DNA of 64,000 bases from Escherichia coli (GTDB lineage: Bacteria > Pseudomonadota > Gammaproteobacteria > Enterobacterales > Enterobacteriaceae): the NCBI RefSeq assembly GCF_029227855.1, contig NZ_CP074356.1; one strand, given 5' to 3'. The position numbers were made by a program, and so were the translations under genes. Position 1 is the first letter of the stretch. Each line of letters opens with the position of its first letter. Below are positions 43,419 through 57,494 of the stretch, in pieces. Below the pieces are notes generated by a model. The model made no database searches and was not told the DNA's origin. It saw only the letters and a list, made by a program, of their open reading frames with translations.

Positions 43419-43529
43419 TTAATTTGATCGCCCGAACAGGAATGTTTGGGCGATTTTTATTACGATAATAAAGTCTGTTTTTAATATTATCATGTTAAAT
43501 GTTTATATTATAAAAAGTCGTTTTTCTGC

Positions 43530-43549
43530 TTAGGATTTTGTTATTTAAA
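43530..43549 (+). promoter_or_regulatory. GAD box (GadE binding site) upstream of gadA
   Basis: Exact 20-bp TTAGGATTTTGTTATTTAAA about 80 bp upstream of the gadA ATG. Confidence 0.75.
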
Positions 43550-43628
43550 TTAAGCCTGTAATGCCTTGCTTCCATTGCGGATAAATCCTACTTTTTTATT
43601 GCCTTCAAATAAATTTAAGGAGTTCGAA

Positions 43629-45029
43629 ATGGACCAGAAGCTGTTAACGGATTTCCGCTCAGAACTACTCGATTCACGTTTTGGCGCAAAGGCCATTTCT
43701 ACTATCGCGGAGTCAAAACGATTTCCGCTGCACGAAATGCGCGATGATGTCGCATTCCAGATTATCAATGATGAATTATATCTTGATGGCAACGCTCGTC
43801 AGAACCTGGCCACTTTCTGCCAGACCTGGGACGACGAAAACGTCCATAAATTGATGGATTTGTCGATCAATAAAAACTGGATCGACAAAGAAGAATATCC
43901 GCAATCCGCAGCCATCGACCTGCGTTGCGTAAATATGGTTGCCGATCTGTGGCATGCGCCTGCGCCGAAAAATGGTCAGGCCGTTGGCACCAACACCATT
44001 GGTTCTTCCGAGGCCTGTATGCTTGGCGGGATGGCGATGAAATGGCGTTGGCGCAAGCGTATGGAAGCTGCAGGCAAACCAACGGATAAACCAAACCTGG
44101 TGTGCGGTCCGGTACAAATCTGCTGGCATAAATTCGCCCGCTACTGGGATGTGGAGCTGCGTGAGATCCCTATGCGCCCCGGTCAGTTGTTTATGGACCC
44201 GAAACGCATGATTGAAGCCTGTGACGAAAACACCATCGGCGTGGTGCCGACTTTCGGCGTGACCTACACCGGTAACTATGAGTTCCCACAACCGCTGCAC
44301 GATGCGCTGGATAAATTCCAGGCCGACACTGGTATCGACATCGACATGCACATCGACGCTGCCAGCGGTGGCTTCCTGGCACCGTTCGTCGCCCCGGATA
44401 TCGTCTGGGACTTCCGCCTGCCGCGTGTGAAATCGATCAGTGCTTCAGGCCATAAATTCGGTCTGGCTCCGCTGGGCTGCGGCTGGGTTATCTGGCGTGA
44501 CGAAGAAGCGCTGCCGCAGGAACTGGTGTTCAACGTTGACTACCTGGGTGGTCAAATTGGTACTTTTGCCATCAACTTCTCCCGCCCGGCGGGTCAGGTA
44601 ATTGCACAGTACTATGAATTCCTGCGCCTCGGTCGTGAAGGCTATACCAAAGTACAGAACGCCTCTTACCAGGTTGCCGCTTATCTGGCGGATGAAATCG
44701 CCAAACTGGGGCCGTATGAGTTCATCTGTACGGGTCGCCCGGACGAAGGCATCCCGGCGGTTTGCTTCAAACTGAAAGATGGTGAAGATCCGGGATACAC
44801 CCTGTACGACCTCTCTGAACGTCTGCGTCTGCGCGGCTGGCAGGTTCCGGCCTTCACTCTCGGCGGTGAAGCCACCGACATCGTGGTGATGCGCATTATG
44901 TGTCGTCGCGGCTTCGAAATGGACTTTGCTGAACTGTTGCTGGAAGACTACAAAGCCTCCCTGAAATATCTCAGCGATCACCCGAAACTGCAGGGTATTG
45001 CCCAGCAGAACAGCTTTAAACACACCTGA
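43629..45029 (+). CDS. gadA: Glutamate decarboxylase alpha (PLP-dependent)
   Basis: 466-aa ORF starting [19 protein letters not shown]...; assigned gadA rather than gadB by the gadXW neighbourhood. Confidence 0.93.
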
Positions 45030-45045
45030 TAACATAACGTTGTAA

Positions 45046-45090
45046 AAACCGAATGCCCAGCCTTTAAAAAAACAGCTGGGCATTCGGTTG
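45046..45090. terminator. Hairpin terminator downstream of gadA
   Basis: CCGAATGCCCAGC...GCTGGGCATTCGG inverted repeat flanked by A/T runs. Confidence 0.6.
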
Positions 45091-45398
45091 CTTATTAATC
45101 GCAATAATATATTGGCTGTCTATTCATCGTGTTGATAAGATATATGTTATATGAATGTTTATTAAATGTAGCGATTGCCTTTAATGTCACGAAAAGGGAT
45201 TATTTGCTTGCTATTAATTTCACTGCGTTCTTAAACACGTTTTTGTATTATAAATCCAGTCATCCTGCCCGTAGAACATCACACATTATCATCCTGTTCT
45301 CCCGCTTCGTTTAAATTTATTTATCAATCAATTTGACTTAAGAGGGCGTCGTGCTACATTAATTAACAGTAATATGTTTATGTAATATTAAGTCAACT

Positions 45399-55243: not shown

Positions 55244-55306
55244 TGAGGTACAAGTAAAAAGGAGTAGCAAGTTGAGCCATCTTGCTGCTCCTTTTTGCAT
55301 TTTTAT

Positions 55307-55954
55307 ATGACAGCAGAATTTATTATACGTCTTATACTAGCGGCAATTGCCTGTGGCGCTATTGGCATGGAAAGGCAAATGCGCGGCAAAGGAGCAGGGT
55401 TACGCACACATGTATTAATTGGCATGGGAAGCGCCCTGTTTATGATTGTTTCGAAATATGGTTTTGCTGACGTGCTGTCTTTAGATCACGTCGGACTCGA
55501 CCCCAGCCGTATTGCTGCTCAGGTGGTGACGGGCGTCGGGTTTATCGGTGCAGGTAACATTCTCGTTCGTAACCAAAATATTGTAGGTCTGACGACGGCA
55601 GCGGATATCTGGGTGACCGCCGCCATAGGTATGGTTATTGGCAGCGGTATGTACGAACTGGGTATTTATGGTTCAGTGATGACCTTGTTGGTGCTGGAAG
55701 TCTTCCATCAATTAACCTTCCGCCTGATGAACAAAAATTACCATTTACAGCTGACATTAGTGAACGGTAATACGGTATCAATGCTCGACTGGTTTAAGCA
55801 GCAAAAAATAAAAACGGATTTAGTTTCGTTGCAGGAAAATGAAGATCATGAAGTGGTCGCCATTGATATCCAGCTTCATGCCACAACGTCGATAGAAGAC
55901 CTGTTGCGATTATTAAAAGGTATGGCAGGGGTGAAAGGCGTTTCAATTAGCTAA
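55307..55954 (+). CDS. yhiD: MgtC-family inner membrane protein YhiD
   Basis: 215-aa membrane ORF from ATG 55307 (MTAEFIIRLILAAIACGAIGMERQ, MgtC/SapB motif). Confidence 0.85.
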   Translation: MTAEFIIRLILAAIACGAIGMERQMRGKGAGLRTHVLIGMGSALFMIVSKYGFADVLSLDHVGLDPSRIAAQVVTGVGFIGAGNILVRNQNIVGLTTAADIWVTAAIGMVIGSGMYELGIYGSVMTLLVLEVFHQLTFRLMNKNYHLQLTLVNGNTVSMLDWFKQQKIKTDLVSLQENEDHEVVAIDIQLHATTSIEDLLRLLKGMAGVKGVSIS

Positions 55955-55995
55955 TCTGTGTGGCAGCGTAGCCAGACTCACCGTAAGCCTGAAAT

Positions 55996-56526
55996 TCACA
56001 CCAGATAATCAATATGCTGATGGCGTACCAGCTCATTGATCCGCTTAAGATTGAGGATCATCATGATATTGTGTTTATGGCAGTAGAACGTTTTTAGCGA
56101 TATTTTCAGTTTCTCCAGAATATCTTCCGTTGTCATTTGATTCGCAATGCAGCTCAGAACCTGATGTTGCTTGCGCGAAAGTGACACATTCGCTTCAGGC
56201 ACAGAGCAGTAACTGCCATTGATGAGTGCGACAAAATCAATGATAGTGATAGTCCGCGGAACAAAGGTCACCGGCACTTTCCCCAGGCAGCGTTTAATAT
56301 TAAAGGGGGAGAAAATAATCACATGGACAGGTTTTAATCGTTCAATTTGAGTGAGAAAATTAGAATGAAATACATTATTCATTAATGTATCAATAATGAC
56401 GAAGGCATTCTGATGCAACATTACGTCGATCTCTTCTTCGTTCTGTATATGAACGACATTACCTTTACTCAGAATGTTTTTCATCGCGGTGAAGAACATC
56501 GTATCCCTGGTAATTATAAGAAACAT
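55996..56526 (-). CDS. dctR: LuxR-family regulator DctR (YhiF)
   Basis: 176-aa ORF with C-terminal LuxR-type HTH; between yhiD and slp. Confidence 0.85.
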   Translation of the reverse strand: MFLIITRDTMFFTAMKNILSKGNVVHIQNEEEIDVMLHQNAFVIIDTLMNNVFHSNFLTQIERLKPVHVIIFSPFNIKRCLGKVPVTFVPRTITIIDFVALINGSYCSVPEANVSLSRKQHQVLSCIANQMTTEDILEKLKISLKTFYCHKHNIMMILNLKRINELVRHQHIDYLV

Positions 56527-56681
56527 AACCGACTCCTGGTGCGGACATTAACTTTATAATCAGTTTGCCAAAGGTAATTAACAGGACAGGGCTTATAATA
56601 ATAATAGTTAGCTTACTGTATATTAATTTTATGTAATACATGATGCAGATGCTGAGAAAGCATCTGCATCTTTCGGTGGTG

Positions 56682-57248
56682 TTATTTGACCAGCTCAGGT
56701 GTTACCTGACTCACCGCATTGGTGTAGTAAGGCGCACCCCAGCCCGGTTCCGGCCAGAATGCACCATAGCCGTAATCCCACAGGTTATAGGTGGTATTAA
56801 CCACTTCTCTCAAATGCCACACCTGGATGCCCTGCATATTCACTTCCAGGAAGTTATACGGGACTTTATTGATAAAGCCTGGTTGTTCACCCTGAATGGT
56901 ACCGAGGATGGTAACAAAGTGATTACGATAGTTCACTGGATCAAGGAAGCCGCTTTGTCTGGCGAGCAGTCGGCCCTGATAGTTGGCTTCAATATCAGGC
57001 TTCGCATAGCTATCCAACGGTAATACAGCGATTTCTAACAACGTATCCGTTTTGCCATTGATAACGTTGATAACCTTCCCACCAAAGCGCGCTTGTTGAC
57101 CAACATATAACCCCGGCTGGTTATGAACAGCAACAAAACTTTTTTGAATATCAGGTTGGTTATTGCCTTTGATATTTTGCGGAATTGAACTACATGCGGC
57201 AAGCAAAAATGAAAGGCTGAGGATGAGTGCACCTTTTGTCATGTTCAT
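56682..57248 (-). CDS. slp: Outer membrane starvation lipoprotein Slp
   Basis: 188-aa product from the internal ATG (MNMTKGALILSLSFLLAACSS..., lipobox LAAC). The track ORF extends upstream to 57413. Confidence 0.88.
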   Translation of the reverse strand: MNMTKGALILSLSFLLAACSSIPQNIKGNNQPDIQKSFVAVHNQPGLYVGQQARFGGKVINVINGKTDTLLEIAVLPLDSYAKPDIEANYQGRLLARQSGFLDPVNYRNHFVTILGTIQGEQPGFINKVPYNFLEVNMQGIQVWHLREVVNTTYNLWDYGYGAFWPEPGWGAPYYTNAVSQVTPELVK

Positions 57249-57494
57249 GTTACTATCCTTATCAACAAATATTAAAACCATAATAGATATTTCTTTATAG
57301 TTTTCATCTGATTCTGAGGTGATATGCCTGATAGTAACGTAAACCTGTCTGATGTTTATATCCCTTCTGTTTAGTTCAATTCCGTTATTTTGGGGCGTGG
57401 TATGAGTATCCATCGCCCAATAATATAACCCTTTGTTTTAAAATTACATAAAATCTATTTTTATTCAATAATTATAAAGTGCTAATAATCAATA

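Follow-up and report, generated by a model that had tools for sequence, protein, structure and literature searches.

Positions 43419-57413 of the analyzed stretch, a window of 64,000 nucleotides of Escherichia coli DNA (contig NZ_CP074356.1) to which all coordinates below refer, carry the genes from gadA to slp and thus raise the question of whether an intact acid fitness island (AFI) is present, in which sense it can be called complete, and whether its regulation may be expected to follow that of strain K-12. As judged from the DNA, the segment is almost certainly the standard chromosomal AFI of E. coli, in the 12-gene form typical of K-12, intact and very probably functional. The island is already known, well understood, and ordinary, and nothing in it is unusual.

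Integrity and Distribution of the Island

The gene set of the AFI, composed of slp, dctR, yhiD, hdeB, hdeA, hdeD, gadE, mdtE, mdtF, gadW, gadX, and gadA, is contiguous in the window, in this order and with 12/12 genes intact; the same 12 protein genes are listed in the same order in the annotations of both the best-matching genome and K-12 MG1655, with respect to which the island lies in reverse-complement orientation (window position x corresponds to NC_000913.3 position 3711209 - x). The comparison with K-12, based on five 3-kb alignments covering positions 42000-56999, revealed 136 substitutions and no gap columns or indels. All 12 genes match their K-12 counterparts in length, begin with ATG, and end with a stop codon, none being interrupted by a stop inside the reading frame, and their products contain Pfam or NCBIfam domains of the expected families. 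The amino-acid differences from K-12 total 10 and are distributed among GadX (four), GadW (two), MdtF (two), DctR (one), and Slp (one), while GadA, MdtE, GadE, HdeD, HdeA, HdeB, and YhiD are identical. The first-pass annotation had described the genes as present, full length, and in canonical order, and all 13 features that it named are in fact found in the K-12 order; the frameshifts that it proposed to look for by careful alignment are not found over 42000-56999.

The presence, integrity, and order of the genes, as well as the base-level identity of the genes, of the small RNAs, and of the mapped binding sites described below, are direct observations. The 13,995 bases of the segment are approximately 100% identical, over their full length, to E. 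coli chromosomes including GPEC1222, NCTC8623, and CFSAN029787, and at least 80% of the segment is found in one place in 5406 of the 5426 complete E. coli genomes. Across 20 kb, only two differences from GPEC1222 are detected, both intergenic (45349 and 54866), the coding sequences being identical. The bases at these two positions differ from both K-12 and GPEC1222, the best-matching genome, and the bit scores indicate that no complete genome of the collection is identical over the full 13,995 bases.

The chromosomal position is also that of the AFI, with ccp (yhjA, 42021-43418) and treF upstream and the yhiS pseudogene and ars genes downstream, and the synteny is kept in four Escherichia species representatives. 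Across the genus the structural proteins are 97-99% conserved (GadA about 99% identical, MdtF and HdeD about 98-99%). In the same representatives (L009-L012), far faster divergence is seen in the two regulators, GadX with 75-93% and GadW with 78-95% amino-acid identity.

sORF15, a Candidate Thirteenth Protein Gene

The list of 12 genes may be incomplete by one. Between gadW and mdtF, the plus strand at 47464-47745 contains sORF15, a published gene for a predicted inner-membrane protein of 93 amino acids, preceded by an AGGAGG ribosome-binding site and overlapping with its last 21 codons the 3' end of mdtF on the opposite strand. It is an exact match to the interval NC_000913.3:3663464-3663745 (minus strand), the sORF15 of PMC10746267, and its product carries the change C65R with respect to K-12 (R65 here). 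This open reading frame (ORF) was found by ribosome profiling in the 3' untranslated region (UTR) of gadW by Schumacher et al. 2023 (PMC10746267); its Ribo-seq signal was induced about 18-fold by acid (log2FC 4.2) at pH 4.4, its product was confirmed by FLAG western blot, and two transmembrane helices were predicted (PMC10746267). The hydropathy profile computed here, with two hydrophobic segments and a basic tail, agrees with the published prediction, and the K-12, GPEC1222, and Nissle records lack an annotation of sORF15.

The reading frame is intact and free of indels in seven Escherichia sequences, including K-12, Nissle, and the four species representatives; the 122 alignment columns preceding it are 47% variable with 12 gap columns, and the Shine-Dalgarno sequence and the ATG are conserved at 25 of 26 columns. 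The selection test was limited to the first 55 codons, which are clear of the mdtF overlap and of a terminator-like hairpin of mdtF (47635-47672, minus strand; 16-bp stem, -27.3 kcal/mol, z=-5.0) that shows a compensatory change in the divergent Escherichia species L012. In these codons the variable sites are distributed as 15/5/25 over the three codon positions (p=0.0013), and the ratio of nonsynonymous to synonymous substitution rates (dN/dS) is 0.06-0.19 in the frame of the ORF versus 0.3-2.0 in the other two frames. sORF15 is therefore a published gene that is unannotated in RefSeq, for which evidence of purifying selection has been computed here. The balance of this evidence leans towards a genuine 13th protein gene of the AFI, under purifying selection throughout the genus Escherichia; because it is kept under such selection, its product is likely to be a working part of the acid-resistance or MdtEF machinery and not translational noise, and it deserves annotation and a phenotype.

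Two other small ORFs were considered and rejected. sORF14, a candidate ORF of 13 amino acids in the gadW 3' UTR (47366-47407, plus strand), is identical in sequence to the entry in Table S7 of PMC10746267 and is present here, but indels occur at its site in other Escherichia species. A "hypothetical protein" of 92 amino acids called by PGAP at 52037-52315 (plus strand), antisense to the small RNA gene gadF and annotated in near-identical genomes, is probably spurious, judging from in-frame stops in another Escherichia species, nine gap columns, and variable sites without codon-position bias (24/22/30 over the three positions).

The yhiD-dctR Junction and the Meaning of Completeness

Whether the island deserves to be called complete depends on the form taken as reference. 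In the window, yhiD and dctR are separated by a 41-bp spacer (55955-55995), which is the empty site of the chu/shu heme-uptake locus; in O157:H7 EDL933 the corresponding position holds 9057 bp with eight heme genes, and the extended island of the O157:H7 and E. albertii type, characterized by these eight genes between yhiD and dctR, is not the one found here. The words "complete" and "canonical" of the first-pass annotation thus hold for the 12-gene K-12 form and fail for the chu-bearing form, the 9-kb locus being absent. The AFI alone is not the whole glutamate system either, as gadBC lies elsewhere. The missing chu locus suggests a chuA-negative strain background, and in Clermont typing chuA-negative strains belong to phylogroup A, B1, or C.

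The island could accordingly be regarded not as complete but as a reduced derivative of an ancestral 20-gene Escherichia island, in which the chu/shu genes were lost or never gained, and the arguments on the two sides are evenly matched. The length of the EDL933 insert against the 41 bp of the window speaks for this view, as do the distribution of the uninterrupted yhiD-dctR junction, present in 3178 of the 5426 complete E. coli genomes and thus missing in about 41% of them, and the occurrence of chu-type genes after yhiD in two Escherichia species representatives out of the three for which the retrieved sequence extends past that gene; moreover, the 20-gene form is described in both O157:H7 and E. 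albertii (PMC5799925). On the other hand, the AFI was defined on K-12 as the 12 genes from slp to gadA, and by that definition the island is complete (PMC5799925, PMC2887963); the heme genes have no acid-resistance role, and in the divergent species L012, too, yhiD and dctR are joined directly, so that the chu event could have run in either direction.

GAD Box and Regulator Sites

The gadA promoter contains the sequence TTAGGATTTTGTTATTTAAA at 43530-43549 (plus strand), an exact 20/20 match to the GAD box that is identical to K-12. When up to three mismatches were allowed, this was the only match in the 64-kb window, with zero expected by chance, which bears out the first-pass statement that the box is recognizable at the base level. 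A distance of 16 bp separates it from the -35 hexamer TTGCTT (43566-43571) downstream, in agreement with the description in PMC2887963, where the gadA GAD box is described as bound by the RcsB/GadE heterodimer. The putative core promoter (43566-43594, plus strand), read from the sequence with the spacing rule of PMC2887963, consists of this hexamer, a 17-bp spacer, and the -10 hexamer TACTTT, and shows no K-12 differences; with the transcription start site (TSS) inferred from the -10 hexamer, the box is centered at about -62.5 (about -63), that is, at the distance of about 63 bp that characterizes the AFI.

Published GadE and GadW peaks from chromatin immunoprecipitation with exonuclease digestion (ChIP-exo; PMC4918353, supplementary table 1) were converted to window coordinates. 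The GadE peak P12 of gadA converts to 43523-43551 and covers the GAD box, which validates the conversion. In the divergent promoter region of hdeD and hdeA, the GAD-box-like site TTAGGAAATTTTTATTAAAT (54291-54310, minus strand), the second best in the island, has 15/20 matches with TTAGGA intact, and it is covered by the published GadE peak P10 of hdeD (-54 from the TSS, signal-to-noise ratio 41), which converts to 54289-54317. Upstream of gadE, peak P11 converts to 53005-53039 and only the TTAGGA half-site is kept in the GadE site at 53008-53027 (minus strand), and at the published GadE peak upstream of hdeA nothing GAD-like is found (10/20 matches). A search for further GAD boxes upstream of gadE, hdeA, and hdeD, suggested earlier for this DNA, is thus rewarded by one credible site at hdeD and a half-site at gadE, with none at hdeA. 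Relaxed scans of the island were not above chance, giving 5 sites at a threshold of at least 14/20 versus 2.7±1.7 expected from local-composition shuffles and 20 sites at a threshold of at least 13/20 versus 14.4±4.0, and the only credible GAD-like sites in the island are those with 20/20 and 15/20 matches. The GadE ChIP-exo 15-mer TTARGAWWWWAAATA was uninformative, with five matches at up to two mismatches versus 2.95 expected and the gadA box missed; similarly, a generic sigma-70 promoter scan (34 versus 28±5.5 in shuffles) was not above chance and was not used as evidence.

The GadX/W motif AKGKCTGWTWTTWWYMYVAK, taken from PMC4918353, has nine matches in the window versus 2.96 expected, and the island is enriched in them, with five of the nine; these precede gadA and gadE and occur at the gadY-gadW promoters, near published GadW peaks. 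In particular, a box-like sequence with two mismatches precedes the gadA GAD box (43471-43490, plus strand). The binding region of the divergent gadY-gadW promoters (46314-46384), which has no single-nucleotide polymorphisms (SNPs) with respect to K-12, includes a motif match with two mismatches at 46365-46384 (minus strand), and the published GadW peaks P5 and P6 convert to 46314-46375. The upstream regulatory region of gadE, 798 bp long (52844-53641, 36.2% GC; 12 substitutions and no indels with respect to K-12), contains a GadX/W-like box at 53429-53448 (minus strand, motif match), with GadW peaks converting to 53389-53413 and 53462-53497. In the non-coding promoter and regulatory region of slp (57249-57413, 165 bp, 29% GC), a published GadW peak converts to 57248-57264, and GadX peaks, placed manually through the same conversion, fall at about 57266-57400.

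Small RNAs

The gadY gene, antisense to the gadX 3' UTR, matches Rfam RF00122 at 46235-46348 (minus strand) over the full model with 150 bits (E=2.5e-32; gathering score 45), and the K-12 gadY feature maps to 46240-46345 (minus strand) with no differences; its earlier recognition at the base level is therefore well founded. It lies between gadX and gadW, with its terminator hairpin at 46248-46266 and its 3' end about 12-17 nucleotides beyond the gadX stop codon. gadF (Rfam ES205), derived from the gadE 3' UTR, occupies 52127-52217 (minus strand), where the K-12 feature maps with no differences and Rfam RF02754 matches 52127-52198 (minus strand) with 105 bits. arrS, antisense to the gadE 5' UTR, is located at 53155-53224 (plus strand), with the K-12 feature b4704 mapping without differences and a terminator-like hairpin at 53194-53218.

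Proposed Mechanism and Possible Differences in Regulation

Given this identity, the parts of the island would be expected to work as they do in K-12, by the mechanism already established in the literature. RcsB/GadE, bound at the GAD box some 63 bp ahead of the gadA TSS, would switch on glutamate decarboxylase, and each conversion of glutamate to γ-aminobutyric acid would use up one cytoplasmic proton, with the GadC antiporter and GadB presumably supplied from another locus. GadE would also activate the divergent hdeD and hdeAB-yhiD promoters, providing periplasmic chaperones and membrane proteins, and would drive its own gadE-mdtEF operon, in which gadE is predicted to be co-transcribed with the genes of the MdtEF efflux pump. 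The AraC-type proteins GadX and GadW would feed into the gadE, gadA, slp-dctR, and their own promoters; at the RNA level, GadY may pair with the gadX 3' UTR, stabilizing the gadX-gadW message, and ArrS and GadF, acting respectively from the antisense of the gadE 5' UTR and from the gadE 3' UTR, may add further control. H-NS on the AT-rich, promoter-bearing spacers would keep the island silent until overridden by RpoS or by acid signals.

Some observations weigh against an island that is functional in exactly this way. The genes gadBC, rcsB, evgAS, ydeO, and rpoS are outside the window; GadX and GadW have four and two amino-acid differences, respectively, and the 798-bp control region of gadE has 12 SNPs, even if the coding alleles are common to other natural strains; and neither of the intergenic SNPs at 45349, in the spacer of a putative gadX promoter, and at 54866, in the hdeA-hdeB interval, occurs in the best-matching genomes.

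An intact island that is regulated differently in this strain, through the alleles of GadX, GadW, and the gadE control region or through the two rare intergenic SNPs, is nevertheless unlikely. It would be favored by gadX and gadW being the most diverged AFI genes with respect to K-12 (with 75-95% amino-acid identity across Escherichia versus 97-99% for the structural proteins), by the SNPs upstream of gadE, and by SNP 45349, which falls within the spacer of a promoter-like sequence preceding gadX. However, all the mapped binding sites (the GAD box, the GadE peaks at gadE and hdeA, and the GadW peaks at gadW) carry either no SNP or just one, in a flanking position, and other natural isolates have the same coding alleles.

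Composition, H-NS, and Origin

The GC content of the island is 45.7% and that of the window 49.9%, with values of 32.8% in the spacer 45030-45398 and 36.2% in the spacer 52844-53641. The spacers of the island have a median of 0.36 and the 15 spacers elsewhere in the window one of 0.48 (p=0.004 in a one-sided Mann-Whitney test), in line with the AT-rich intergenic DNA that had been noticed by eye, including the 45.0-45.4 and 52.9-53.6 kb regions. The AT-richness covers genes as well as spacers, and the composition of the AFI is in fact a mosaic: gadE (33% GC), dctR (39%), hdeB (40%), gadX (41%), and gadW (42%) are AT-rich, gadA and mdtEF have 53-54% GC with a GC content at third codon positions (GC3) of about 0.62, and the AT-rich tract runs on past slp to about 60.4 kb. 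The sequence TCGATAAATT is said to be a high-affinity H-NS motif, reportedly from Lang et al. 2007; matches to it, with up to two mismatches, are about 3.5 times denser in the island than in the left flank.

Close relatives of GadW were searched among 100,044 species representatives, one genome per species, in a scan that detects close relatives only and leaves distant homologues beyond its reach; just four Escherichia loci, all syntenic, and one spurious match of 37 residues were obtained. Such a restriction of the AFI to Escherichia/Shigella is in agreement with PMC2887963 and PMC5799925, the latter of which places the insertion after the split of E. fergusonii, and repression and binding of the AFI by H-NS were shown experimentally (PMC2984483). 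The putative attributes "H-NS-silenced" and "horizontally acquired" thus agree with three lines of evidence, namely the composition and motif density, the distribution of GadW, and the literature. That the AT-rich spacers are nothing other than promoter-dense regulatory DNA, telling nothing about foreign origin or H-NS, is very unlikely: intergenic DNA as a rule has a higher AT content than coding DNA, gadA and mdtEF have a host-like or higher GC content, and the structural genes are as conserved across Escherichia as core genes, but the island spacers are significantly more AT-rich than the others of the same window, several genes are AT-rich themselves, close GadW relatives occur in Escherichia only, and H-NS binding and repression are documented.

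Genes of the Island

gadA (43629-45029, plus strand) encodes glutamate decarboxylase A of 466 amino acids, as in the annotation of a near-identical genome, with three silent substitutions with respect to K-12 and a Pfam PF00282 match (E=2.6e-111). It is followed on the same strand by the genes for two AraC-family proteins, the activator GadX (45399-46223, 274 amino acids; F53L, V79I, R246G, and S248P), whose gene is the most diverged of the AFI with 97.8% nucleotide identity to K-12, and the regulator GadW (46591-47319, 242 amino acids; Q21H and L31V). The minus strand then encodes the RND efflux permease MdtF (47682-50795, 1037 amino acids; Pfam ACR_tran, 1413 bits; A295T and N709D) and the membrane fusion protein MdtE (50820-51977), which has 385 amino acids with the K-12 start and is identical to the K-12 protein, the PGAP call being a shorter product of 369 amino acids. 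The master activator GadE of the LuxR family (52316-52843, minus strand; 175 amino acids, Pfam GerE) has a gene of 33% GC with 100% nucleotide identity to K-12.

In the following part of the island, with products identical to those of K-12, the minus strand encodes the acid-resistance membrane protein HdeD (53642-54214, 190 amino acids, DUF308) and the plus strand the periplasmic acid chaperones HdeA (54469-54801, 110 amino acids, PF06411) and HdeB (54917-55243, 108 amino acids, ATG start intact) and the MgtC-family inner membrane protein YhiD (55307-55954, 215 amino acids, PF02308). The last two genes are on the minus strand: dctR (yhiF, 55996-56526) encodes a LuxR-type regulator of 176 amino acids with A113N as the difference from K-12 and an allele identical to that of EDL933 (WP_000478621.1), and slp (56682-57248) encodes an outer-membrane lipoprotein of 188 amino acids with S74A and an NCBIfam TIGR00752 match of 301 bits. 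The end coordinate 57413 of the first-pass annotation marks the place where the longest ORF (243 amino acids) begins, and it has to be corrected, the annotated slp starting at 57248; the 243-aa version reaching 57413 was rejected, its in-frame extension being unsupported and the lipoprotein signal being located at the annotated ATG.

Neighborhood of the Island

Beside slp, the yhiS homologue (57602-58717, minus strand) is a frameshifted pseudogene without IS5; with respect to the intact 371-aa gene of EDL933, one base is missing from an A-run at about 57958, and a single inserted base at about 57629 compensates for the loss. Between yhiS and arsC, an ArsR/SmtB-family regulator and a 337-aa "permease" are encoded at 59298-60715, where EDL933 has no annotated genes. 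At the other end of the window, three tandem copies of ldr type I toxin genes (9920-11292), repeats with about 95% self-similarity, appeared as secondary BLAST matches during the colinearity check.

The block 27897-38529 is a 10,633-bp copy of the distant ghxP-yjcE-yjcF-actP-yjcH-acs-nrfA locus; the expected rcdB-yhjD-yhjE-yhjG-pdeH-kdgK-yhjJ-dctA segment, 10,665 bp long in GPEC1222, has no match in the window. Both junctions of the block are in the middle of genes, no insertion sequence element is seen there, and its comparison with the closest relative, strain GB089, gives one substitution and 13 indels of 1-2 bp. From these features it looks like a misassembly, a sequencing artefact, or an engineered swap rather than natural divergence. 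The contrast drawn by the first-pass annotation between the AFI and this disrupted region is borne out by the zero indels and 136 substitutions of the former (with respect to K-12) against the 13 indels and one substitution of the latter (with respect to its closest relative); the AFI serves as an internal control in which natural divergence consists of substitutions without indels, and the block is thereby anomalous. In itself the finding of a normal, intact AFI is of little weight, and nothing in this segment speaks against ordinary glutamate-dependent acid resistance.

Comparison with Known Systems

The gadBC locus, which encodes a second glutamate decarboxylase and the GadC antiporter, shares its GAD box with the AFI and, like it, is controlled by GadE/RcsB and GadX/W (PMC2887963, PMC4918353); in contrast, it lies elsewhere on the chromosome, outside the window, and the AFI alone is without an antiporter. 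The 20-gene AFI of EDL933 and other chuA-positive strains has all 12 acid genes in common with the island described here, and the HdeA, HdeB, HdeD, YhiD, DctR, and Slp proteins of EDL933 are identical (same WP accessions); however, EDL933 has the 9-kb, eight-gene chu/shu locus and an intact yhiS homologue, and the window has neither.

In comparison to the AFI of K-12 MG1655 (slp-gadA, b3506-b3517), the 136 substitutions and the 10 amino-acid changes across the 12 proteins are the differences within the island region; in the flank, yhiS is frameshifted in the window but split by IS5 in K-12, and the window has the extra ArsR-family regulator and permease between yhiS and arsC. The two islands otherwise have the same 12 genes with the same order, orientations, and lengths, no indels, and about 99% nucleotide identity, and they are identical in gadY, arrS, gadF, the GAD box, and the gadA promoter; the direct yhiD-dctR junction is the same, as are the flanks, with ccp and treF on one side and yhiS and the ars genes on the other.

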